From Candidatus Gottesmanbacteria bacterium (GTDB lineage Bacteria > Patescibacteriota > Microgenomatia > UBA10105 > UBA927): a DNA stretch of 64,000 nt. Shown here in pieces: positions 6,694 through 59,832 of this stretch. Below the pieces are notes generated by a model. That model did not search any database. It worked only from the letters and a program-made list of their open reading frames with translations, and had not been told where the DNA came from. The DNA is taken from NCBI GenBank assembly GCA_016214885.1, contig JACRMP010000015.1:13420-77419 (forward strand). The letters are read 5' to 3'. Each line of letters opens with the position of its first letter. Positions within the stretch are counted from its first letter, which is position 1. The position numbers and the translations under genes are program-made.

Positions 6694-7113
6694 CTATTTC
6701 TCCTCTCTGACAGAGATTTTCTTCGGCTGCGCTTTGGGGGATTTGGTGAATGTCACCGTCATTACCCCATTTTTTACCGTGGCTGCCGGTTCCTGATTGG
6801 GATCGATGTCTCCCGGTACGGCGACGCGGTACGAAAATGAGCCAGCGGCTTTGCGGTAGAATTTTTTGTTCTTTTCTTCCGTTTTGGATTCGCCTTTTAT
6901 CCAGACAACTCCGTGGTCTACCGTTACTTCGATGTCCTGGGGATCGACGCCAGGAACTGCCGCCTGGACATAGATACTTTTCTCATCTTCCGAGAGCGAT
7001 AAGCCGCTCGGCCAGTTGGTTACTGCTCCCCAGTCTTCGTCATCTTCCCATAAGGCGGGCAGTGACGGGAGCCGGAAGTAGGAACGGGGAATTAAGTCAG
7101 TCATGTGTCTCAC
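6694..7113 (-). CDS. Hsp20/alpha-crystallin family small heat-shock protein
   Basis: 139 aa with alpha-crystallin domain pattern (AVPGVDPQDIEVTVDHGVVWIKGE...GSFSYRVAVPGDID). Strong SD sequence AAAGGAGGTG. Confidence 0.85.
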   Translation of the reverse strand: MRHMTDLIPRSYFRLPSLPALWEDDEDWGAVTNWPSGLSLSEDEKSIYVQAAVPGVDPQDIEVTVDHGVVWIKGESKTEEKNKKFYRKAAGSFSYRVAVPGDIDPNQEPAATVKNGVMTVTFTKSPKAQPKKISVREEK

Positions 7114-7142
7114 CTCCTTTTAATTTGCCCCTCTATTGGGGT

Positions 7143-7180
7143 CTAGCACTCTTATATCACGAGTGCTAAAAAGTTGTCAA
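7143..7180 (-). promoter_or_regulatory. CIRCE (HrcA operator) overlapping the hsp20 promoter
   Basis: CTAGCACTC-N9-GAGTGCTAA differs from the CIRCE consensus TTAGCACTC-N9-GAGTGCTAA by one base. On the minus strand a -35 TTGACA and -10 TATAAG flank and overlap it, 30-60 nt upstream of the hsp20 ATG. Confidence 0.7.
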
Positions 7181-7249
7181 GATAGATTTTTGGGGTATTG
7201 AAAATTTGTGTATTGCGTTACATTTGGTCATTCCTTACAATGCCTATAT

Positions 7250-8020
7250 ATGAAAGAAACACCAGTTGCCCCGCAGCCAAGATGGATAATGGTCTCACTC
7301 GTCGGTCTTCTTATGGTAGCCTCATTTCTTGTAGGATCACTCTATACAAAAGTGCAGTATCTTGAAGCAGGCGGAGCGCCGGCCGGAGGAGTAGCAGCAA
7401 AATCCAAGTATAAAACATTCGACGAGGCTATGACGGCATTGGCTAAAGATGCCAAACTTGATGCCAAGAAGCTTGTTTCGTGCATGAATAGCGGAGAAAA
7501 GAAAGCTGTTGTTGACGCGGAATCAGCAGAGGCTGCAGCTGTAGATGTAACCGGTACTCCTGCGTTTTTTATAAACGGTAAGCTACTGGGCGGAGCATTC
7601 CCGTTTGAAAGCTTTAAGGAAGTCATCGATAAAGAGCTTGCAGGAACCGGGTCAGAAAAAGTAACCGATTATTCCCAGACACTGCAGGATGCTAATAAAA
7701 GCGGCGCCTTTGATCCTAAGCCAAGAACGCTTACGATCGGTACTTCCAGCAGTAAGGGAGCGGATAAAGCACCCATAACCATTATTGAATTTTCTGATTT
7801 CCAGTGTCCGTTCTGCAGCAGGGCACACCCGACAGTCAAGCAGGTACTTAATGAGTACAAGGATAAAGTAAGATTTGTGTATAAACATATGCCGCTTGTG
7901 AGTATCCACCCGCGCGCGCATATCACCGCCCAGGCGGCTGAATGTGCCAAGGATCAGGGGAAGTTCTGGGAATTTCATGACCAGCTCTTCGAGAAGCAGA
8001 CCGATTGGTCGTCACTCTAA
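7250..8020 (+). CDS. DsbA-like thioredoxin-fold protein with apparently circularly permuted domain order
   Basis: N-terminal TM anchor. Residues ~60-130 match the C-terminal half of a DsbA domain (...VTGTPAFFINGKLLGG). The C-terminal part carries the N-terminal half (FSDFQCPFCS...FVYKHMPL...GKFWEF) and ends soon after. Start could be 7208 or 7250. Confidence 0.55.
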   Translation: MKETPVAPQPRWIMVSLVGLLMVASFLVGSLYTKVQYLEAGGAPAGGVAAKSKYKTFDEAMTALAKDAKLDAKKLVSCMNSGEKKAVVDAESAEAAAVDVTGTPAFFINGKLLGGAFPFESFKEVIDKELAGTGSEKVTDYSQTLQDANKSGAFDPKPRTLTIGTSSSKGADKAPITIIEFSDFQCPFCSRAHPTVKQVLNEYKDKVRFVYKHMPLVSIHPRAHITAQAAECAKDQGKFWEFHDQLFEKQTDWSSL

Positions 8021-22370: not shown

Positions 22371-23342
22371 ATGCGTCTGTTCCGATTGCTCCACCATTGG
22401 CTTGTTCCCCATGAGGCGAATAACCACCGCGCGAAAGCGCTTCATCATGAGGCGCTTTTTGCCTATGTCCTGCTTCTTGCCGTGTTTAACCTCGGTATAC
22501 GTTATTTCCATGGCAAAATGCCTGACGTTTTGGGATATGCCACGGATATCCGGGTTGAACAGCTCGTTGCAGCAACTAATGCCAAACGCGCCGAATATGG
22601 TTTATCACCGGTCTCGCTAAACGGCGCCCTTTCCGCCGCCGCCGCGGCAAAAGCAGCCGATATGTTTGCCAATAATTATTGGGCGCACAACAGCCCGGGA
22701 GGTAAGACTCCGTGGGATTTTATTATCGGGGCAGGCTACCGCTATACACTTGCCGGAGAAAATCTGGCTAAAAATTTCCAAACGAGCGACGGCGTTGTTG
22801 AGGCCTGGATGAATAGCGAAACGCATAGAGCAAATATCGTTAAAGGGGGTTATAAAGAAGTGGGATTTGCGGTAGTAAACGGCGTATTAAACGGAGAAGA
22901 AACAACACTGGTGGTACAGATGTTCGGAACCACCTCAGCGCCTATTGCCCAGATTCCCAAAGCAGAAGCCGCAGGACCCGCGCCTACTGTCGCACCAACT
23001 ACCGCCCCGGTAGTTGAGGAGGTTGTGCCGGAACCTGTCGCCCTGGTGCCGGCAGAGCCTGCCGCGGTGAACACGACGCCGGCTCCGGCGCCTGCTGCCA
23101 ATTTCGGCTCAGGATTTTCTTTCGAACGGGTGGTTTCAGTGCCAAAGATCAATATTTCAACGCTCACAAGCAACGTAGCACTTGTTGTTGTAGGCCTTTT
23201 GATAGGACTACTTGCCGTTGACGCGTTTGTGATTAGAAAGAAGCGCGTGGTCAGATTGGCAGGTCATAACATCGCTCATATATTATTTTTAATAACCATG
23301 GTGATAAGTGGACTTGGCATCGTCCGCGGGAGTCTCTTATGA
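22371..23342 (+). CDS. CAP/SCP (YkwD-like) domain protein with Ala/Pro-rich linker and C-terminal TM segments
   Basis: N-terminal TM, then CAP signature ANNYWAHNSPGGKTPWDFI...GENLAKNF...AWMNSETHRANIV. Linker PAPTVAPTTAPVVEEVVPEPVALVPAEPAAVNTTPAPAPAA, then two TM helices. Alternative start at 22329. Confidence 0.65.
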   Translation: MRLFRLLHHWLVPHEANNHRAKALHHEALFAYVLLLAVFNLGIRYFHGKMPDVLGYATDIRVEQLVAATNAKRAEYGLSPVSLNGALSAAAAAKAADMFANNYWAHNSPGGKTPWDFIIGAGYRYTLAGENLAKNFQTSDGVVEAWMNSETHRANIVKGGYKEVGFAVVNGVLNGEETTLVVQMFGTTSAPIAQIPKAEAAGPAPTVAPTTAPVVEEVVPEPVALVPAEPAAVNTTPAPAPAANFGSGFSFERVVSVPKINISTLTSNVALVVVGLLIGLLAVDAFVIRKKRVVRLAGHNIAHILFLITMVISGLGIVRGSLL

Positions 23343-23587
23343 AACAGCAGGATTTGCTTAACGCAATTATATTAATCTGTATTTTGGGCGGCGGCCTGTT
23401 TACCTTCTGGACAGCATCGGGCAATATCCCCCTCCAGCTGGTGATTGGAGGAATTACCACCGTAGCGTATGTTGTGTGGGGAATTGTCCATCACATCTTA
23501 TCCGGGGATTTCCATCGGAAGGTTGTGATAGAATATGTCCTCGTGGGCCTGATAGCATTAGTGTTATTGGCCACATTAGCAGTATAA
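23339..23587 (+). CDS. small membrane protein (2-3 TM)
   Basis: 82-aa hydrophobic ORF. ATGA overlap with the upstream gene. Confidence 0.35.
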   Translation: MKQQDLLNAIILICILGGGLFTFWTASGNIPLQLVIGGITTVAYVVWGIVHHILSGDFHRKVVIEYVLVGLIALVLLATLAV

Positions 23588-24351: not shown

Positions 24352-25367
24352 TGCGATTACTCGTAACCGGGGGAGCCGGATTCATAGGGGCAAACTTCAT
24401 CCTTTATTGGCTGAAGCATCATCCTGACGATGAGATAGTAAACTTCGATAAATTGACCTACGCCGGGAATTTGGAAAATTTGTCCAGTGTTGAAAAAAAT
24501 CCCCGCTACCGGTTTGTACAGGGGGATATTTGTGTATCAAAGGATGTTGTTGCCGCAATGGATGGCATCGATACGGTTGTTCATTTTGCCGCGGAAAGCC
24601 ACGTGGACCGTTCCATTCTTGAGGCGGCACCGTTTATCACCACAAATGTCACTGGCACTCAAGTGCTATTGGATGCTTCCCTCAAAGCAAAGGTAAAACG
24701 TTTCCATCATGTGTCAACAGATGAAGTGTTTGGCGCGCTGCCGCTTAATACGCCTGATAAGTTTAATGAGGCTACGGCATATGACCCCAGGAGTCCGTAT
24801 TCAGCTAGTAAAGCAGGATCGGACCATTTGGTGCGGGCATACTTCCACACGTTCGGACTCCCAGTCACTATAACCAATTGCTCCAATAATTACGGCCCAT
24901 TCCAGTTTCCGGAAAAACTTATTCCGCTTGCTGTCACAAATCTTCTGGAAGGCAGGAAAGTGCCGGTTTATGGGGATGGCAAATACGTGCGTGACTGGCT
25001 ATATGTCGATGACCATTGCAGGGCAATAGATGCAGTGCTCACCCGCGGACGCGTGGGGGAAACATATTGTGTGGGGGGGCTAACCGAAGATGTAGACAAC
25101 CTCACCATCATCAAAAATATTTTAACGATTATGGGTAAGGATGAGTCACAAATTGAATATGTCACCGATCGGCCGGGCCATGACCGCAGGTATGCAGTGG
25201 ACTGGACAAAAATTAATAAGGAGTTGGGATGGAAGCCGGAAAATGATTTCCAAACATGGCTCAATCTTACGGTTGCCTGGTATCGGGATCATGAGGATTG
25301 GTGGAAACGGGTAAAGAGCGGCGCGTATAAAGAATATTACGCAAAACAATACAAAAGCGCCTTATGA
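24351..25367 (+). CDS. rfbB: dTDP-glucose 4,6-dehydratase
   Basis: TGGAGFIG Rossmann motif, YSASK catalytic motif, RmlB-specific TNCSNNYGPFQFPEKLIP. Confidence 0.9.
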   Translation: MRLLVTGGAGFIGANFILYWLKHHPDDEIVNFDKLTYAGNLENLSSVEKNPRYRFVQGDICVSKDVVAAMDGIDTVVHFAAESHVDRSILEAAPFITTNVTGTQVLLDASLKAKVKRFHHVSTDEVFGALPLNTPDKFNEATAYDPRSPYSASKAGSDHLVRAYFHTFGLPVTITNCSNNYGPFQFPEKLIPLAVTNLLEGRKVPVYGDGKYVRDWLYVDDHCRAIDAVLTRGRVGETYCVGGLTEDVDNLTIIKNILTIMGKDESQIEYVTDRPGHDRRYAVDWTKINKELGWKPENDFQTWLNLTVAWYRDHEDWWKRVKSGAYKEYYAKQYKSAL

Positions 25368-25388
25368 CCGGGTAGTGAAACTTCAGAT

Positions 25389-25486
25389 GATTCTGTTCTT
25401 TTCATCCCGTACATAGGCGTTACATGAATAGTGAGGTGCGTGTAAATAGAATAGTGTCATGGGTTGTTAAGGAAAAGAGCAGAATC
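25389..25486. repeat. long-range inverted repeat (15-bp arms, 68-bp spacer) in the rfbB / rmlD-like intergenic region
   Basis: GATTCTGTTCTTTTC (25389-25403) versus GAAAAGAGCAGAATC (25472-25486), 14/15 complementary. Shares the core TGTTCTTTTC/GAAAAGARCA with the repeat at 58088-58178. Confidence 0.6.
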
Positions 25487-25609
25487 AGGTAAATTTATGC
25501 AAAATGCCGTATCACGACTGGAATATAGATTGATTATGGAAGCTTCTGAATCGCTGTCGAAGCGAATGTTACTTCGCGCGGCGTTTTGCCTGAAGTTCTA
25601 CTACCCGGT

Positions 25610-26308
25610 ATGAAACTTCTGGGAACCGGCTTATCAGGGTTGGTTGGGTCGCGTATTGTGGCGCTTCTGTCACAGCATACATTCACCAATTTCAGCCTGG
25701 AAAACGGCGTTGATATAACCGACAGTGCTTCGATTACCCCCCGTATTACCGGTGACACTGATTCCCCTTGGGTATTGCACCTTGCGGCCTACACCAATGT
25801 CCAGCAGGCAGAGGCAGATGCGTTGTTGGGTGAGAATAGTACGGCGTGGAAGGTAAACGTCGCCGCTACCCAAACGCTCGTTGATGCATGCCGCATCACG
25901 GGCAAGCATTTGCTGTATATCGATACCGATTATGCATTTGACGGGGCTAAAGACGTATATTCTGAAGAGGACACACCGCATCCGCTGGGCTGGTACGCCA
26001 AGACTAAATCCGAAGGGGCAATCGCAGCAGCCATAGACGCACTCATGTCCCGCCAAGCCAGCGGTATCTATCATGTGGTGGGGAGTGAAGCCCTTTCTCC
26101 TTATATAGCTGCAGGTATTGTGGCAAAAACATACGGACTCGATGAAGCGCTAGTGAAGCCCACCACCTTTGCTTCTTATTTTGCAGGCAAAGCTCCAATT
26201 CCCCAAAAAGCCGTATTAACAAACGGAAAAATCCGTGCATTGGGGGTTAGCATGCGTGGGTTTGCTGACGGGGTTTCTGAGATGAAACGTCAGGAAGAGA
26301 ATTCCTGA
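25610..26308 (+). CDS. RmlD-like NAD(P)-dependent dTDP-4-keto-6-deoxyhexose reductase (short form)
   Basis: GTGLSGLVG Rossmann motif, VLHLAAYTNVQQAEAD, and catalytic YAKTK. These align to RmlD HxAAxTxVDxAE and YGKTK. Alternative upstream start at 25586. Confidence 0.55.
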   Translation: MKLLGTGLSGLVGSRIVALLSQHTFTNFSLENGVDITDSASITPRITGDTDSPWVLHLAAYTNVQQAEADALLGENSTAWKVNVAATQTLVDACRITGKHLLYIDTDYAFDGAKDVYSEEDTPHPLGWYAKTKSEGAIAAAIDALMSRQASGIYHVVGSEALSPYIAAGIVAKTYGLDEALVKPTTFASYFAGKAPIPQKAVLTNGKIRALGVSMRGFADGVSEMKRQEENS

Positions 26309-26362: not shown

Positions 26363-27658
26363 ATGACGATAGCATTTGTTGGTCACGGATATGTCGGTTT
26401 AGTAACTGCTGCTGTGTTTGCCGATTTAGGCAATACGGTATGGGTAGTCGGGAGAACGAAAGAGAAAATTGAACGGTTGAAAAAAGGCGACCCGCTTATT
26501 TATGAACCGGGACTTGACGAGCTCCTCAAGAGAAATCTTGCCGCAGGAAGGCTTAAATTTACCCTAGATTATAAGGAAGCGGTAGTAGCATCGGCTGTCA
26601 TATTTATCGCGGTAGGGACCCCTTCTAAGCCAAACGGCGAAGCGGATCTGAGTCAGGTATTTGCCGCCGCAGAAGAAATCGGCAAATCACTGGTAGGATA
26701 CAAAGTGGTGGTCACCAAGAGTACCGTACCTCCGGGAACGGGTAAGAAAGTCGCGGCAATTGTTGAGAAAGTGAAGCCGGACGGATCTTCGTTTGCGATC
26801 GCTTCATGTCCGGAGTTTCTCCGTGAGGGAACGGGGTTATCCGATACACTGCATCCTGACCGGGTAGTGATCGGCACCAATTCCGACCGGGCGCGCGATA
26901 TTCTGGTTGAGCTCCATAAATCCATCGACGGAAAAGCGGTACTTAGTAATGTAGAAACAGCCGAGCTTATTAAATACGCCTCAAACTCCATGCTGGCGAC
27001 TAAAATATCGTTTGCCAACGCCATTTCATTTTTGGCGGAGAAAGTGGGCGCTGATGTGGAAAAGGTACTCGAAGGCGTGGGTCTGGATAAACGCATCGGC
27101 AGAAGTTTTCTGTATCCCGGGGTGGGGTACGGCGGAAGCTGTTTTCCTAAAGATGTCAAAGCGCTTATCGCCATTGCGGGAGAATATGAGTATGACTTCA
27201 AGCTTCTGAGGGCTGTCCACGAAGTAAATAACGAAGCGAGGAGTAATTTTGTCGGAAAAATTGTCCAGCATTTTACCTCGCTTAAGGGAAAAACAATAGC
27301 CGTATTGGGATTGGCATTTAAGCCGGATACCGATGATATGCGCGAGGCGCCATCTACGGATATTATCCACTCGCTTATCGAGAAGGGTGCCAAAATTGCC
27401 GTATATGATCCCATCGCCATGAATAAGGCAAAAGAAAAGTTACCGTCAGGAATACGATTTGCCAAGGATCCGTACGATGCAGCCCGCGACGCGGATGCTG
27501 TGGCAATTGTCACCGAATGGAATGAATTCCGCCAGATCGATCTTGTACGTCTAGCCAAAGGCATGAAACATCTGGTATTATTTGATGGAAGAAACATTTA
27601 CGAGCCCGCGAGAGTGCGGGAGCTCGGCTTCATGTATTACGGTGTCGGTAGAATGTAA
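26363..27658 (+). CDS. ugd: UDP-glucose 6-dehydrogenase
   Basis: IAFVGHGYVGL N-terminal Rossmann, catalytic GGSCFPKDV, UDPG/MGDP dehydrogenase C-terminal domain. TATACT sits 8 nt upstream of the ATG. Confidence 0.85.
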   Translation: MTIAFVGHGYVGLVTAAVFADLGNTVWVVGRTKEKIERLKKGDPLIYEPGLDELLKRNLAAGRLKFTLDYKEAVVASAVIFIAVGTPSKPNGEADLSQVFAAAEEIGKSLVGYKVVVTKSTVPPGTGKKVAAIVEKVKPDGSSFAIASCPEFLREGTGLSDTLHPDRVVIGTNSDRARDILVELHKSIDGKAVLSNVETAELIKYASNSMLATKISFANAISFLAEKVGADVEKVLEGVGLDKRIGRSFLYPGVGYGGSCFPKDVKALIAIAGEYEYDFKLLRAVHEVNNEARSNFVGKIVQHFTSLKGKTIAVLGLAFKPDTDDMREAPSTDIIHSLIEKGAKIAVYDPIAMNKAKEKLPSGIRFAKDPYDAARDADAVAIVTEWNEFRQIDLVRLAKGMKHLVLFDGRNIYEPARVRELGFMYYGVGRM

Positions 27659-53971: not shown

Positions 53972-55602
53972 TTGTCCGTATCGATTATCGTAAAATGCGG
54001 TGTAGCATCGGGTAGTTGTATTTCAGCAACAACTTTTGGCTGGAGTTCACGCGGCACTTCATCGGATTTGGCAATAAGCAGAGTATTGGGGACGGCAAGA
54101 TCCTTTTGCCAGTCTATGGCTCTGAATGAAAATCTTCCGAAGCCTGATACATCGGAGAATCCGTCTCGCGATATCGGGTAACGGGTAGCCTGTTTTTGAT
54201 AGCTCCCCGGGTTGTATCCGCTGTAAAACATGAGATAGATATACGGGGATGTTTCGGGGTGTGTCATGATGACATTTTTATTTTTATTACTGTCAGAAAA
54301 TAAGACGGGGGTGAGTTTTTTGTATGCGTAGCCCCAGTGGGTAGCTTCGTTTTTGGGGAAGTGGACAAAATATCTGTCAAGATAATATCCCATGGAGCCC
54401 ATGTAGCCTGCTATCAGAACGAGTATCGCAATTTTTTTTCCGTGGGCAGAAGTATATTCCATAAAGAGATGAAATCCGGCACCGGCGGCAATGGCAAACG
54501 ACGGTACGACGGCAAGCATGCGGTTGGAATGGGGCGCATCTTTGGTGATAGCGGCGGCAACTGCACCTGTTGCAATCCACCATAAAATGAATTTTGATTC
54601 CTTTTTCCGGAGCTGAGATATAAGCCATGAAATACCCGCGATGAGAAGCGCTGCTTCTATAGGATGGAGATTGCCATAGCCTTGGATATTATGTGCTCTG
54701 TTGCCGCCTCCCTTGATAAACAAAAATTCTGATCCGTATGACTTGAGGTAGTTTTGGGTAACGGTGATGATAGCGTACGTTACCCTATTGTGCATAAGGC
54801 GGGTAGCTATTGAATTTGGATTGTCGTGCAGAAGACGCGGTAACTCAATTTCTTTGTGAATAACCGTTGGGTCTCCGAATATGGATATGCCGCTTATTTT
54901 GGTGTGATCAGCCGAAAACGTAACGGCAAGTATAGTGAGCGTGAGCGTTCCTCCTGCAGCTAGCGCCACCCACCAGCGGGGAACGCGGATAATATCTTTC
55001 CAGTAGATGATAACAATACCCAGTAGGAGGAGGGTAGTGGATATATGGGTGCCGTGATACGTCCAGTAGGTGAGGGCAAAAAGAATTGCAGCCAACGTGA
55101 GGTACAGCACTGATTTATTGCGGAGCGCAGTAAGAAACAGAAGGGAGCCTGTTATGCAAAAAAATACCGCTGTCACCGCTTCAGATTCCACCCGCGAAAT
55201 ATGGATATGCCACGGCATGAGTGCTAAAGATAAGGCCGCCACTAATGCTATTGAAGATGAGGAGAATAGCATTCTCGCCAGGAAAAATAAGAGAGCGACG
55301 GAGGCAGAGCCTGCAAGCGCCGACGGAAGACGGACAGCAAGCTCCGAAAGTCCAAATATCTTCACAAACGGTATGGTCATGTAAATATATAACGGCAATT
55401 TCCAGTCTCCGAATGACTCAAATGATAGAGGAAACGTTCTCCCGTATTCATCTTTACCCGTGGTCATCAGGGAGTATGCAGTTACACCGATGCTTGCTTC
55501 ATCGCGATTGACACCGGGCGGGGTGTTACGTAATCCGTAAAGCCTGAGTATGGCTGCTATTATGATGATGGAAATTAACGAGTATCTGACGAACGGTTTC
55601 AT
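53968..55602 (-). CDS. GT39/GT83-like (ArnT/PMT_2 family) GT-C membrane glycosyltransferase (group C)
   Basis: NRDEASIGVTAYSLMTTGKDEYG motif. Stop/start overlap with both neighbours. Confidence 0.7.
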   Translation of the reverse strand: MKPFVRYSLISIIIIAAILRLYGLRNTPPGVNRDEASIGVTAYSLMTTGKDEYGRTFPLSFESFGDWKLPLYIYMTIPFVKIFGLSELAVRLPSALAGSASVALLFFLARMLFSSSSIALVAALSLALMPWHIHISRVESEAVTAVFFCITGSLLFLTALRNKSVLYLTLAAILFALTYWTYHGTHISTTLLLLGIVIIYWKDIIRVPRWWVALAAGGTLTLTILAVTFSADHTKISGISIFGDPTVIHKEIELPRLLHDNPNSIATRLMHNRVTYAIITVTQNYLKSYGSEFLFIKGGGNRAHNIQGYGNLHPIEAALLIAGISWLISQLRKKESKFILWWIATGAVAAAITKDAPHSNRMLAVVPSFAIAAGAGFHLFMEYTSAHGKKIAILVLIAGYMGSMGYYLDRYFVHFPKNEATHWGYAYKKLTPVLFSDSNKNKNVIMTHPETSPYIYLMFYSGYNPGSYQKQATRYPISRDGFSDVSGFGRFSFRAIDWQKDLAVPNTLLIAKSDEVPRELQPKVVAEIQLPDATPHFTIIDTDK

Positions 55603-57977
55603 AGTCTCTTTTTTTGTATGATGAGGAGCAATATAATTGTCGCACCTAGGCTAGCGGCACTCAAGAGTATACCCAGGGTGACACTGAAGGGTGCATAGAT
55701 CATGATAACTTCATGTTTGCCTGAAGGAACGTTAATTCCCCGCATGGTCCAATTTACCCGCGCTATAGCGGTGGGTTTGCCGTCTACGGTTGCAATCCAT
55801 CCGGGGTAAAACGTATCCGTCACGACCAGTGTTCCTGACACAGAACTCTCTGTTTTGACCATAACCCTCTCAGGTTCGTAAGAGGTGATGGCAGCGCTTC
55901 CTGTGGCAGGGAAGCCTTTGACTATACTTACCCCCTCAGGGAAAAGGGCGGTGGTAATGGGATTAAATCCATCAGAAAAAAATATGTCGGTGAAATCCCT
56001 GCTATTTTCATATGTTTTTGATTCTCCTGCAACGAATGCGCGGGGAAGAGCCTCGGTATTTTCATATATTGCCCAGTCGTCGAAGCTGTGGATTTTTTTG
56101 ATGACGTGGGGAGGATACGTCTGTTCACTGCTGGCGTTTTCCATCCGATCCAGAATATACCTGACACTGAGGGCGCTTAACACTTTCCGCTTCGTTTCAT
56201 CGGAGAGACCGCCGTCCCCGAACCGGGATGAGATGGCTGCGTCGGAGCGCGATGCGTTGTCAAATATTTCCATGAGCTGGCCGTTTCTGTATGCATACAA
56301 AAACTCACCGTACCACTTGGGATACAGGGGATCATATCCTTCCGGTGAAAAAAGACGGTATTGCGACGCAAAGTTTGCGCTTATATTTGCCGTTCCGTAG
56401 CCCCAGTACCGCCCTAATTGGGCAGAAGACAGGTATGCTATCGTTTTGTGTTCGGGGAACACGAGCTCTTTTGACACAAACGGATTAAACCGGTTGAAAA
56501 ACACAAAAAGATCCATGACATGGATGACTAATAGTACGGTTATGGCTAACGTGCGCATTTTCGGGAGCGCAATAGCAATCCAGAATAAGCCCAATGTGGC
56601 TGCAGACAAAGCCATTCCGTATATGAGAGCCCGTACTGCCACGCCTGCATGGAGCGACAGCTCCGGGGTAAACGGAAGTTTGGTGCCGATAAACAATACG
56701 GCGAAGATTCCCGCCACCTCGATAGTTCTTCTGAATAGTTTTTTAAGCGAGTGCTTATCACGCATCCAGAAGTCTAAGCCTAAACCGCACATCATGGAAA
56801 GTGAGAATGCCAGTAAAAATGACATAAGCGTAGGGCTGCTGGAGGTGAAAAGAGGAATCGGCACCCGATAGAGAATCTGTGTAATCGGATTAGTGGTAAG
56901 GAGTAGTGCGGTGGTCAGCACTGCCAGGATAAACCATTTGGATATCGTATCTTTCCGGCGCAGCGCTGACAGTGAAAAGAATAGCGGAATAAGTCCTATG
57001 GTGGTCACCTTCCCCACAAAGGTATCGCTTGGCCAATAGGTGCGGGTTGCCGGGTTGCCGAATAGATTGGGGAAGGGAAGCGCAAACAACTGACCCGGAT
57101 GGATGAGTATTTTTGCAAATAGATTACCCGGATCATGCGGGCTCCTGGCAGCATGACTGACAAGTTCCATACCGGGGACAACCTGAATGCCCGCAATTCC
57201 GATTCCTAGTGCGGTAAATCCGAGTAAATACGGCCACATAGTTCGGTGCATCCTGAACAATCCGTAGGTGACAGAAAATGCACAGGCATATGCATAGACC
57301 TGGGGGTGTCCAGCAAGAAGCGACATGACGTGGGACAATGTGTATATGCCGAGCCATAGCGGGCTGATTCGTTCCCGTAAGTGTTCTATGGCAAGCAGTA
57401 TGAGTGGGAGCCATAGAACGACGTGGCCTATGGTGTTGTATTCAAGCCAGACTGCCATAAATCCGGAGAATCCGTATGAAGTCGCGGCCAACCAGCTTCC
57501 TAGTGGTCTCATGCCGATTTTTCTGCTAAAGAGATAGGTAAAAAGAACCGCAAGCAGTGGTTGGGTGATCACCAGGATAGTCCATGCGTCAATCTGCGCC
57601 ATGAACAGGTAGAGAATGCCCAGGGGATATACGGCGGCACTTTGGAAGTTTGCAAGGAGCGGGGAGCCGGAAAAATTATACGGATTCCAGAGGGGTAGCC
57701 GTCCTTTCTGAAGCGAATTTATTACTGCCGTTTTCCACGGGTACATTTGACGGATGGTGTCGGGGTATTGCGCCTTGTTGGGTATCCCGCCCGCACCGTA
57801 CCCCAAGTAGGAAGTTGACCGCCACGGCTGGAAGTCGCTTACCAGAATATCCCCGGGGAACGGGACTTTACCACGGAATACAGTCTGATAAAAAAACAGG
57901 GAAATAACGGCAGAAAGTATAACAAGAACCAACATCCATTCGTTTCGTTTCATACCGGGTAGTAGAGCTTCTGGCAA
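55599..57977 (-). CDS. YfhO-family GT-C membrane glycosyltransferase (group B, 792 aa)
   Basis: VPFPGDIL...MYPWK...LPLWNPYNFSGSP N-terminus, and C-terminal DTFYPGWIATVDGKPT...PSGKHEV plus a TM anchor. Confidence 0.65.
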   Translation of the reverse strand: MPEALLPGMKRNEWMLVLVILSAVISLFFYQTVFRGKVPFPGDILVSDFQPWRSTSYLGYGAGGIPNKAQYPDTIRQMYPWKTAVINSLQKGRLPLWNPYNFSGSPLLANFQSAAVYPLGILYLFMAQIDAWTILVITQPLLAVLFTYLFSRKIGMRPLGSWLAATSYGFSGFMAVWLEYNTIGHVVLWLPLILLAIEHLRERISPLWLGIYTLSHVMSLLAGHPQVYAYACAFSVTYGLFRMHRTMWPYLLGFTALGIGIAGIQVVPGMELVSHAARSPHDPGNLFAKILIHPGQLFALPFPNLFGNPATRTYWPSDTFVGKVTTIGLIPLFFSLSALRRKDTISKWFILAVLTTALLLTTNPITQILYRVPIPLFTSSSPTLMSFLLAFSLSMMCGLGLDFWMRDKHSLKKLFRRTIEVAGIFAVLFIGTKLPFTPELSLHAGVAVRALIYGMALSAATLGLFWIAIALPKMRTLAITVLLVIHVMDLFVFFNRFNPFVSKELVFPEHKTIAYLSSAQLGRYWGYGTANISANFASQYRLFSPEGYDPLYPKWYGEFLYAYRNGQLMEIFDNASRSDAAISSRFGDGGLSDETKRKVLSALSVRYILDRMENASSEQTYPPHVIKKIHSFDDWAIYENTEALPRAFVAGESKTYENSRDFTDIFFSDGFNPITTALFPEGVSIVKGFPATGSAAITSYEPERVMVKTESSVSGTLVVTDTFYPGWIATVDGKPTAIARVNWTMRGINVPSGKHEVIMIYAPFSVTLGILLSAASLGATIILLLIIQKKRL

Positions 57978-58087
57978 AACGCCTCTCTTAGAGAATATAC
58001 TCTTAATCGGCTTTTGAGAAGTCTCCTTCCTTAATGGTTATTGCGTTAGATTGTCCGGCGTTTTGCATAAATAAATTAAATTATGTT

Positions 58088-58178
58088 CTTTTCCATTACA
58101 ATCCTATTTCTTTATCTTGTTTATTTTCTTTATGCGCAGACTGCAGTACTGTGACCGGACAGAAAAGAACATAATTTC
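58088..58178. repeat. long-range inverted repeat (16-bp perfect arms, 59-bp spacer) between two minus-strand YfhO-like genes
   Basis: AAATTATGTTCTTTTC (58088-58103) versus GAAAAGAACATAATTT (58163-58178). The spacer contains the 8-bp palindrome CAGTACTG. Core TGTTCTTTTC/GAAAAGAACA is shared with 25389-25486. Confidence 0.65.
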
Positions 58179-58200
58179 CGAAGTTTCACTACCCGGCATA

Positions 58201-59832
58201 TTACGATTTTTTGCGTATTCCCAATGCATATAACGCCGCGGCGGCTATAAGAGAGAATAATGTTACCGTTTCTGCGATACGCCGCACCGGCGACTCCTCC
58301 CATACTACACGGACATGATGGGTTCCCCCGGGCAAACGGAAAGTGATAAGCCCCCTCCAATTTTGATCCTGGAATTCTACCGGAATTTTTTTGCCCCCCG
58401 CATACACCCGCCAGCCGGGGAAATACTGGGTGCGGTCAACTACCTGGACGTCATTTGCAGCTGTTACCGTGAATGTATGAAGGGTTCCTTTTTTAACGGG
58501 ATTACTGATGGTACCTGTCCCTCCCACAATTTCAAAACGGTTTTCGGGATACGATCCTGCGGGGCCTGCTGACCAGATAACATCCGTTTCCCCGAAGTAT
58601 GTGGTGTTCAGAGGATAATCCCAAAAATACCGTTCATCGATTTTATCCATCCCCAGCGGCGGACGGAAATACACCGCAGTCGAGGCAACGGTCATCGTTA
58701 TCAATATGACAATAAGATACAAAGGCGTCTTTTTGTTGATGTATACTACTCCACCAAGAATAGCCAGGGAAAATGCAGTAATATTAAGAAGCCTCCACGG
58801 AAACTGGAACATCCGCAGGATGGGGATATTAGTCCAGAGAAATTGGGAAACGGGCTGCATGACAAAAAGAGCTAATCCTGTTAAAAAGAGCGCAAACCAT
58901 ACCGTCTTTTTTTCGGTAGCACTGTTTATTTTTTTCCGGAGGATAAGAGTAATCGCATAAAAAAGCGACACTACCTGGGTGAGCCCCAACGAAACGGCTA
59001 TGCCGCCTGTTTGGAGACTTGCGGCATTAGTGAGGTTGGGGATAAAAAAATTAACAAACGGTGCAAAGTGTGATTTATACATGTCCTTCATAAATAAATC
59101 GCCGTAGGTATACCGTCGTTCAATAATTGCGGGTATCCAATAAAAGGCGGACAAAGTGAGTCCGAGGGTAAGACCCATAAACCCCTCGATACGTTTTTGG
59201 TGGTTAGGGCTGAACAGAAGCACAAACAGGGTAATGACCCCGAAAAATACGAGGCTTATGGCATTGTGGGAAGTGATAAGAAGCAGGGTGGAAACTCCGG
59301 TAAACAGTACGTTAAGGTAGCTGTTATTTTGTGTAAATCCACGGGTGACGGCATACAGCACCAATGGAAGGAATGCCAGCGCATAGCCCTCAGCCATGTC
59401 GCCGCGTACTAAAAGGTCGATCAGATGAAATGGGGCAAACTGGTAGAGTATGGTCGCAAGCAGTGCTTTCCCTTCATGTTTGAAAAACCGCAGACTGAAA
59501 AGGTACATGAAAATCCCTGAAAGCAAAAAGCTTACCGTAAGGGAAATTTTGAATGCAAAAACCAATCCGCCACCCAGGGCGACAACCGCAGAGGCGACTA
59601 CATACGGAACATGGTAAATAAAGTTGAATAGCGGCATACCATAGCCGTAATTGAGTTCGCCTGCCCACCGCGGGAGAATCTGTCCTTCGGACAACGCTTT
59701 ATAGTAGGCGGCAATACGGGCGAAATGAACAGGGCTGTCGTGTGTATGGGGGGCCAGATCAGTGATAAAAAGGGATATAAACGGGAGAAGCGAAATTGCA
59801 ATAACAAGGATATAGTGCTTAAATGATTTCAT
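58201..59832 (-). CDS. YfhO-like GT-C membrane glycosyltransferase (group A, 543 aa)
   Basis: HTHDS...EGQILPRW...GYGMP N-terminus, and C-terminal TQYFPGWRVYAGGKKI...GGTHHV plus a TM anchor. Confidence 0.6.
   Translation of the reverse strand: MKSFKHYILVIAISLLPFISLFITDLAPHTHDSPVHFARIAAYYKALSEGQILPRWAGELNYGYGMPLFNFIYHVPYVVASAVVALGGGLVFAFKISLTVSFLLSGIFMYLFSLRFFKHEGKALLATILYQFAPFHLIDLLVRGDMAEGYALAFLPLVLYAVTRGFTQNNSYLNVLFTGVSTLLLITSHNAISLVFFGVITLFVLLFSPNHQKRIEGFMGLTLGLTLSAFYWIPAIIERRYTYGDLFMKDMYKSHFAPFVNFFIPNLTNAASLQTGGIAVSLGLTQVVSLFYAITLILRKKINSATEKKTVWFALFLTGLALFVMQPVSQFLWTNIPILRMFQFPWRLLNITAFSLAILGGVVYINKKTPLYLIVILITMTVASTAVYFRPPLGMDKIDERYFWDYPLNTTYFGETDVIWSAGPAGSYPENRFEIVGGTGTISNPVKKGTLHTFTVTAANDVQVVDRTQYFPGWRVYAGGKKIPVEFQDQNWRGLITFRLPGGTHHVRVVWEESPVRRIAETVTLFSLIAAAALYALGIRKKS

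Follow-up and report, generated by a model that had tools for sequence, protein, structure and literature searches.

What is the inverted repeat that lies between rfbB and the RmlD-like gene (rmlD) of a Candidatus Gottesmanbacteria genome (Patescibacteria), and does it control the glycosylation genes around it? The 64-kb stretch of DNA analyzed here (hereafter the window) holds the repeat twice: copy 1, between rfbB and rmlD, heads a run of glycosyltransferase genes of ≈27 kb, and copy 2 lies between the gene for a PTPS-related membrane protein and yfhO. Our analysis indicates that the repeat is, very probably, the middle stem of a 241-nt non-autonomous derivative, similar to a miniature transposable element with inverted repeats (MITE), of a GIY-YIG hairpin cassette that is widespread in Patescibacteria.

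An earlier note, made from the sequence alone, had described in the 242-nt gap between the rfbB stop codon (ending at 25367) and the rmlD ATG (from 25610) two 15-nt arms, GATTCTGTTCTTTTC (25389-25403) and GAAAAGAGCAGAATC (25472-25486), that are 68 nt apart and complementary at 14/15 positions. Both the gap and the coordinates of the arms are exact, and the sole non-complementary position is a T opposite a G, which gives a wobble pair on the + strand. For copy 2, the description of 16-nt perfect arms stands, although the reported span of 58088-58178 and spacing of 59 nt are ≈10 nt off; these arms lie at 58078-58093 and 58162-58177 and are separated by 68 nt. The repeat at both loci exceeds chance. 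Its 10-nt core, TGTTCTTTTC, occurs four times versus 0.14 expected, and the top short-range inverted repeats of the entire 64 kb all fall within the loci of copy 1 and copy 2.

Three stems in both copies

The two sites do share this core, as had been claimed, but the likeness is not confined to 10 nt. The whole gap at 25368-25608 aligns to 57955-58196 in reverse orientation, so that full gaps of ≈241 nt are homologous, with conserved blocks alternating with unrelated sequence. The repeat described earlier is only the middle stem, B/B', of three that are present in each copy, with A/A' outermost, followed by B/B' and C/C' (Table 1). Identity between copy 1 and copy 2 is 0.95 for A, 0.87 for B, 0.80 for B', 0.92 for C, 0.92 for C', and 0.84 for A', whereas the loops are only 0.51-0.55 identical. 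The A/A' pair forms a terminal inverted repeat of 19-20 nt that is 90% complementary in copy 1 and is paired in the folds of both copies. Reading frames in the copies (241 and 242 nt) are interrupted by stops and leave no functional open reading frame (ORF). A small peptide considered for the B loop of copy 1 (MNSEVRVNRIVSWVVKEKSRIR) was likewise rejected as not coding, with 5/5 differences from the L096 locus changing an amino acid (judged by eye).

Inverted repeats of 19 bp around ≈200 nt directly upstream of surface-glycan operons are the classic layout of an inverton, in which a promoter invertible between A and A' would make the glycosylation operons phase-variable. The element, however, has one orientation in 10/10 assemblies that carry copy 1 or copy 2, and neither a sense- nor an outward-facing promoter is predicted inside it. 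Its interior is instead a nuclease pseudogene whose arms flank an intact gene in relatives, as described below, and we find an inverton scarcely credible here.

Derivation from a GIY-YIG cassette

A scan of species-representative genomes for the exact 17-mer of the A arm returned a number of loci close to the chance prediction (73), and only the ≈20 matches in Patescibacteria are real elements. There, the 17-mer stands at the element start and in most cases is followed 40-300 nt after the A arm by the partner CGAAGTTCTACTACCCGG. In the longest of these elements (L044 and L076, and L047, where the copy is partly disrupted), a small ORF between the arms encodes a GIY-YIG nuclease domain (Pfam PF01541, E 3e-16). 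The intact cassette is a single long hairpin of ≈310 bp, in which arms of ≈19 bp (CCGGGTAGTGAAAnnnn / nnnnTTCTACTACCCGG) directly bracket an 89-aa single-domain GIY-YIG gene. Its 5' part reads TATG, CCGGGTAGTGAAAnnTTCAG, AAGATT, ATG TTC TTT TAT; its interior holds GTA AAA GAA CAT AAT CT and, further on, GAT GCA AAA CGC AGA G; and its 3' part reads CTG CGT TTT GCC TGA, AnnTCTACTACCCGG, TATG.

When both window copies are aligned on five intact cassettes, the same internal deletions appear in both. By this alignment, B is the start-codon region of the nuclease gene and B' its V-K-E-H-N codons, C corresponds to the D-A-K-R-R codons, and C' to the L-R-F-A-stop codons, with the stop codon itself lying in A'. 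The copy in the window has lost ≈65 nt of the gene together with its reading frame but has kept three stems. Translation of copy 2 still yields the remnants KEHNL and YAKRRTI*RNNH*GRRLLKSRLRVYSLREAF. In blastn comparisons, copy 2 matches intact GIY-YIG genes with 75% identity over 114-120 nt (E 1e-15), and copy 1 matches their 3' part with E 1.6e-8. The window copies combine several features by which a MITE is recognized, namely a short sequence without a functional ORF, terminal inverted repeats, a target duplication relative to an empty site (below), and a longer coding parent with the same ends.

Insertion at stop and start codons

From the flanks of copy 1, we foretold an empty site in which the genes meet in an ATGA overlap (..TTATGAAACTT), and this arrangement was found as foretold in relatives. 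At the L097-L100 and L184-L186 loci, whose RmlD proteins show identities of 80%, 77%, 74%, and 72%, rfbB and rmlD overlap as ATGA (..GCTTTATGAAACTT) with one TATGA, whereas the site is filled in L095 (RmlD 95% identical) and L096 (86%). The copy 2 site is empty in L182 and L183 (YfhO 83% and 77% identical; ..TAATATGAAACG), where TAATATG links the PTPS-related gene to yfhO, and is filled in L181 (YfhO 89% identical). The target duplications, TATGA (5 bp) for copy 1 and TATG (4 bp) for copy 2, are single in the empty sites. Because the filled sites carry duplications of what the empty sites hold once, both copies are true insertions. Of each duplication, one copy retains the stop of the upstream gene and the second the start of the downstream gene, so that the neighboring genes are left intact.

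These comparisons also change the meaning of the gaps themselves. The earlier note had regarded them as the only sizeable non-coding regions of a glycosylation island and had taken the shared core there as a sign of a functional element, but in relatives the genes at either site overlap or abut, and it was the insertion of the element that created both non-coding stretches. Half-sites of a paired operator, or a cis-regulator dedicated to the glycosylation island, had been proposed on this basis, and the two copies do head two long glycosylation operons. The ancestral loci, however, lack any intergenic region, and the arms are pseudogene remnants that correspond in the cassettes to the nuclease start codon and the KEHN codons; in relatives, the motif thus occurs inside coding regions, within GIY-YIG genes that stand beside unrelated housekeeping genes, and such occurrence in coding sequence is what the earlier note had named as a refutation. 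The same stem recurs in at least 70 distinct GIY-YIG cassettes beside unrelated genes. Family members lie directly upstream of the genes for ribosomal protein S5, DnaG, ParB, an ABC ATPase, and an HMA protein, and others sit between a sortase and a nucleoside phosphorylase gene or beside a GalT-like gene. Because family members adjoin such unrelated genes, we see no link to glycosylation, and an operator function is very improbable.

Both occupied sites share the 8-nt word TATGAAAC. Two further gene-start sites with this word in the window, at 23338-23345 (+) and 55596-55603 (-), are unoccupied. A longer target word of this kind was rejected, given these two unoccupied sites and flanks that are not conserved past ≈4 nt in the family.

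A family of hairpin cassettes in Patescibacteria

A protein search with the nuclease returned 414 homologs from Gottesmanbacteria, Moranbacteria, and unclassified Patescibacteria; among the matches listed, nearly all are 86-97 aa long and are named GIY-YIG nuclease. The catalytic-type residues are invariant in these homologs, and intact relatives contain PF01541 alone or together with the related T5orf172 domain. Among solved structures, 1zg2 and 1ywl, both UPF0213 proteins, come closest (E 1.7e-5).

A metagenome scan with the protein alignment detected at least 545 loci, and 80 of these were retained. Complementary arms of ≈20 nt abut the GIY-YIG ORF in 44/45 distinct metagenome loci for which both flanks are available. 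The distal 10 nt of the arms match their own partner at 8.6/10 positions versus 5.5/10 for the partners of other loci, and these distal sequences occur in 35 distinct variants. A tandem G·T + A·C mismatch recurs at a fixed position in every arm pair. The loci examined contain 84 distinct elements altogether, which fall into three size classes (58-93, 127-152, and 294-323 nt); 4-nt direct repeats flank 40 of them, with TATG accounting for 31 of those 40, and family-wide flank counts show no target-site conservation past ≈4 nt. In a large subfamily (L107-L125 and others), the asymmetry of the arms is reversed with respect to the gene, with GTAGTAGAA on the left and TTTCACTAC on the right, which implies that the asymmetric hairpin accommodates the nuclease gene in both orientations. 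The arms GTAGAGAAA/TTCTTCTAC, with the tandem mismatch unchanged, mark a third subfamily. As far as the searchable literature goes, the family appears to be undescribed; searches on MITEs in bacteria of the Candidate Phyla Radiation and on the arm sequences gave nothing relevant, a result that bounds novelty and does not prove it.

Several individual loci add to this picture of the family. Elements stand back to back at L117, L135, L150, L158, and L177, where neighboring arms are separated by a shared TATG or TTG alone, and such arrays resemble the clusters that repetitive extragenic palindromic (REP) elements form as bacterial interspersed mosaic elements (BIMEs). At L047 (7162-7403), upstream of dnaG, a 33-nt mini hairpin from this family (CCAGGTAGTGAAAGCAAAGCTTCTACTACCTGG) has taken the place of the 5' half of a cassette, so that the nuclease gene was destroyed by nested insertion. 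The same gene (MSSTKIINVLKDD...) lies downstream in two Yanofskybacteria genomes; L044 (reverse strand, 6944-7262) has a full GIY-YIG cassette there, whereas L067 (reverse strand, ≈467) has only a solo 17-nt A arm with a 7-nt direct repeat, TATATGT, which could be a deletion footprint. A tandem 21-nt repeat with several copies of the A-arm 17-mer and no partner arm in a Lachnospiraceae contig (L028, 1481-1623) appears to be unrelated.

Folding and stem covariation

The sense strand folds to -92.9 kcal/mol for copy 1 (z -6.3) and to -72.7 kcal/mol for copy 2 (z -5.3), and the antisense folds are weaker (-70.5 and -68.5 kcal/mol, respectively). In the fold common to both copies, A/A' is an outer stem that closes two long hairpins, B/B' and C/C'.

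Each of the three stems shows covariation among family members. Around the ATG, B/B' is paired in 52-70 of 70 loci at positions -4 to +6 and in 40-44 at -6 and -5, with up to four Watson-Crick pair types per position; covariation in this stem peaks where its non-coding side meets the codon after EHN. In C/C', double compensatory changes give GCAG/CTGC, GCCG/CGGC, and GTCG/CGAC. Copy 1 itself has gone from ATTATG/CATAAT to ATTCTG/CAGAAT, where the CAT to CAG change in B' compensates for ATG to CTG in B, so that the start codon is lost and the stem is kept. A conserved long stem had been the other candidate in the earlier note, which had also asked whether complementarity holds in related genomes. 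It does, through compensatory and wobble changes. The original observation was real but partial, and its interpretation was right on the conserved stem and wrong on function and context.

Family-wide, G·U outnumbers A·C in B/B' by 80 to 58, a ratio that decides neither between RNA and DNA nor between strands. Compensatory changes could also arise without selection, by template switching in quasi-palindromes. No Rfam 15 family matches the window at gathering score, permissive scans of both loci gave chance-level hits only (E ≥ 0.6), and promoter and terminator prediction found no sense-strand signal in either element.

Divergence of the elements and their flanks

Between the window genome and that of SRR22388071, the elements are 94.2% (copy 1) and 97.5% (copy 2) identical, whereas adjoining 100-nt bins have identities of 0.71-0.94 and the flanking genes are 74-91% identical. 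Third codon positions differ at 30% in rfbB, 33% in yfhO, and 38% in the PTPS-related gene. Two explanations would account for the high identity: purifying selection on an exapted RNA, or copies that are younger than the split of their hosts.

Under the first, the element would be an intercistronic RNA kept by host selection, which adds to a mobile origin and does not replace it; A/A' could hold the upstream stop beside the downstream start and so preserve the translational coupling of the former ATGA overlap. Besides the identity of the orthologous copies relative to their far more diverged flanks, this explanation is favored by the variable paired sites among copy 1 orthologs, 7/8 of which keep pairing through G·U on the sense strand, and by the better folding of that strand in both copies. 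The elements are also co-oriented with their operons, reaching from 0-4 nt past the stop to 1 nt before the start, and most genes here lack a Shine-Dalgarno motif. Unpaired positions, however, are conserved too (≈9% variable versus ≈30% neutral), so structure alone is no explanation. Very close relatives change at or above the local rate (5 element changes versus ≈1.7 expected), the two stem changes that separate copy 2 from L181 both disrupt pairing, the loops of the paralogs are ≈50% different, and no sense-strand promoter or terminator is predicted. We consider exaptation rather unlikely.

The second explanation, younger copies, draws on the population in which the elements occur. Mismatches relative to the very close relatives L001 and L095 cluster at 25681-25879, 24863-24986, and 26596-26851, in tracts of 100-300 nt that fall mostly on third codon positions; this clustering is the mark of frequent short-tract recombination with diverged alleles in this glycosylation region, and element-sized imports are accordingly common in this population. 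All carriers come from the run series SRR2238xxxx (one study, judged by accession prefix), and the non-carriers come from other samples. Against it, no co-converted flank around the element is visible in the 100-nt bins that compare the window genome with SRR22388071.

Relation to known repeat-associated systems

The nearest described system, compared through its published description and repeat consensus, is Ssn/NTS. Ssn proteins (≈94 aa, single-domain GIY-YIG) cut single-stranded DNA (ssDNA) beside hairpin repeats, multiplied in the genome, on either side of their gene, and Chenal et al. (2025, Nat Commun; PMC11893778) remarked on the insertion sequence (IS)-like look of NTS-ssnA-NTS and on its analogy with REP elements and their RAYT transposases. 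Both systems tie a single-domain GIY-YIG protein of ≈90 aa to hairpin repeats of its own that are multiplied and mostly extragenic (PMC11893778). A single GIY-YIG domain of ≈90-100 aa, which characterizes Ssn, is found here in the intact relatives only (86-97 aa), the window copies being pseudogenes. In Ssn/NTS (PMC11893778), complete hairpins of 20-50 nt flank the gene, whereas here the gene lies inside one long hairpin of which each arm is half a stem. A few family loci (L117 and L135) also have a neighboring element that abuts the gene-bearing one. Start and stop codons built into stems also set the present family apart from Ssn/NTS, and the SRM consensus, HGTCWYN(0-2)YYVSBRHN(0-5)WNVSBRGN(0-2)RNCYNB, is matched nowhere in the window and once in ten family loci. 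Insertion is evidenced here by target duplications and by filled and empty sites; in the part of the Ssn paper drawn on here (PMC11893778), such evidence is not reported, and Patescibacteria receive no mention.

Like the window copies, the bacterial MITEs Correia, ERIC, RUP, and BOX are short, do not code for protein, end in terminal inverted repeats, and duplicate a short target; they too are intergenic, co-oriented, and probably co-transcribed, form a long hairpin as RNA or DNA, and are products of internal deletion in a longer coding parent. The known parents, however, encode DDE-type transposases, whereas the sole ORF here is a GIY-YIG nuclease, and unlike in known MITEs, the target (T)ATG(A) consists of start codons or ATGA overlaps and a tandem mismatch is conserved in the arms. 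The family resembles IS200/IS605 elements and REP/BIME with RAYT in being centered on hairpins, in the proposed action of a small nuclease on single strands, in short target words, and in high-copy non-autonomous hairpins. The enzyme of those systems is an HUH Y1 transposase, whereas it is GIY-YIG in all 44 bracketed loci, and IS200/IS605 insert without the target duplication of 4-5 bp found here. The intron-borne and free-standing homing endonucleases, such as I-TevI and the T4 Seg proteins, share the GIY-YIG domain and, possibly, a homing-like spread into the same site; such lateral spread would make an element look younger than its flanks. They have an added DNA-binding domain and long target sites but no terminal inverted repeats or target duplication, in contrast to the bare 89-aa domain of the cassettes. 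Overall, the family is akin to Ssn-type repeat/nuclease systems and MITE-like in its behavior.

A model for movement

We put forward, tentatively, that the family may be an unrecognized class of mobile element, in which a ≈89-aa Ssn-like GIY-YIG nuclease encoded in one hairpin would move it as folded ssDNA into start-codon sites of the form (T)ATG(A), duplicating 4-5 bp. The window copies would then be younger than the host split and would have spread laterally, in a homing-like manner or by short-tract recombination, into the same sites of co-occurring Gottesmanbacteria. The copies themselves arose by internal deletion of a GIY-YIG cassette, copy 1 inserting into the ATGA stop/start overlap of rfbB and rmlD with duplication of TATGA, and its sister between the PTPS-related gene and yfhO with duplication of TATG. 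Once the single strand is folded, both junctions would meet at the base of the A/A' stem, where, by analogy with Ssn nucleases and IS200/IS605, the family nuclease could cut in trans. In intact copies, B/B' would hide the start codon of the nuclease, probably throttling its translation. The window element is most likely a tolerated, co-transcribed, structured spacer and not a regulator.

Several points weigh against our main reading of the repeat as part of a MITE-like derivative of a mobile cassette. By tblastn, no intact GIY-YIG gene lies within the 64-kb window (no match is significant, and the best one within an element, the copy 2 remnant, has E 3.8), and a trans-acting nuclease in this genome is accordingly an assumption. 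There are no more than two element copies in 64 kb, whereas other loci in Patescibacteria have 3-5 per 8 kb. A neutral fossil would be expected to have diverged by ≈30% between the window genome and that of SRR22388071, and the copies differ by 5.8% and 2.5%. Hairpin-only minis without B/B' and C/C' exist, which means that those stems are dispensable for spread and that their retention here needs another reason. To our knowledge, there is no precedent for a GIY-YIG protein as the sole enzyme of transposition, and a nuclease-driven model gives no account of how duplications of 4-5 bp form.

Alternatively, REP-like hairpins might be spread by another enzyme or by recombination, with the GIY-YIG protein as a domesticated partner or a passenger that acts, for example, on transforming or replicating ssDNA, as in REP/RAYT or the NTS/Ssn of Neisseria. 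Ssn is also a single-domain GIY-YIG protein of ≈90 aa, and it cuts ssDNA by hairpins and modulates transformation without transposing (PMC11893778). Short-tract recombination is, moreover, frequent in this population, and hairpin-only copies far outnumber gene-bearing ones at some loci, with five in 8 kb at L072. The placement of the gene inside the hairpin, with arms abutting the ORF and start and stop codons embedded in B and A', is instead the layout of an autonomous unit. The nested mini insertion at L047 and the target duplications show insertion as a unit, and no other transposase stands beside the elements in the loci inspected. On balance, we judge spread by other means improbable.

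Features of the window copies and other observations at the locus

Table 1 Features of the two element copies in the window
Feature	Position	Strand	Basis or remark
Copy 1, left target-site duplication TATGA	25363..25367	+	Includes rfbB stop TGA (25365-25367); empty sites carry one TATGA
Copy 1, 241 nt, very probably a non-autonomous, internally deleted GIY-YIG hairpin cassette	25368..25608	+	Homology to copy 2 and intact cassettes
Copy 1, A arm (left terminal inverted repeat) CCGGGTAGTGAAACTTCAG	25368..25386	+	Pairs with 25590-25608
Copy 1, B arm; former GIY-YIG start-codon region, ATG to CTG	25389..25403	+	Aligns to AGATT-ATG-TTC-TTT-T of intact cassettes
Copy 1, B' arm; former (V)K-E-H-N codons, CAT to CAG	25472..25486	+	Alignment, translation
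Copy 1, C arm GCAAAATGCCG; former D-A-K-R-R codons	25499..25509	+	
Copy 1, C' arm CGGCGTTTTGC; former (L/R)-R-F-A codons	25579..25589	+	Covaries with C
Copy 1, A' arm (right terminal inverted repeat) CTGAAGTTCTACTACCCGG	25590..25608	+	Former GIY-YIG stop TGA at 25591-25593
Copy 1, right target-site duplication TATGA	25609..25613	+	Includes rmlD-like start ATG (25610-25612)
Copy 2, left target-site duplication TATG	58197..58200	-	Directly after TAA stop (58201-58203) of PTPS-related membrane protein gene
Copy 2, 242 nt, copy 1 architecture	57955..58196	-	Recognizable pseudogene remnants
Copy 2, A arm	58178..58196	-	
Copy 2, B arm AAATTATGTTCTTTTC; former start ATG still intact	58162..58177	-	
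Copy 2, B' arm GAAAAGAACATAATTT; former K-E-H-N codons	58078..58093	-	
Copy 2, C arm GCAAAACGCC	58057..58066	-	
Copy 2, C' arm GGCGTTTTGC	57974..57983	-	
Copy 2, A' arm CAGAAGCTCTACTACCCGG	57955..57973	-	
Copy 2, right target-site duplication TATG	57951..57954	-	Includes yfhO start ATG (57953-57951)

The A arm contains GGTAG, and a JUMPstart/ops-like site for a NusG paralog was considered; this candidate was dropped, the arms being the terminal repeats of a cassette that stands beside unrelated genes. At position 26021, the RmlD-like gene lacks 174 bp (58 codons, in frame) that are found in L001 and L002 (99.4-99.9% identical) and in L095. The NCBI protein is also of 232 aa versus 290, reflecting either a real deletion in a substrate-binding region or an assembly artefact. 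A Shine-Dalgarno-like motif, even loosely defined, precedes 11/43 likely gene starts in the window, and 4-nt ATGA overlaps are numerous; in this genome, translation probably begins, for the most part, through coupling or at Shine-Dalgarno-independent starts.

Implications

For this window, a false lead is removed, in that the repeat is not a glycosylation control element and both intergenic regions are insertions. For Patescibacteria, the analysis points to a common and compact mobile cassette that consists of a bare GIY-YIG gene in one hairpin, with verified insertions and MITE-like derivatives, and its preference for start codons and ATGA overlaps spares both neighboring genes. If the nuclease does drive movement, Ssn-type ssDNA nucleases would be extended from repeat-associated to mobile, and the family would supply new hairpin-specific ssDNA cutters. 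The conservation peak of a pseudogenized element between flanks that are ≈15% different offers a testable case of exaptation versus lateral spread in bacteria with tiny genomes.

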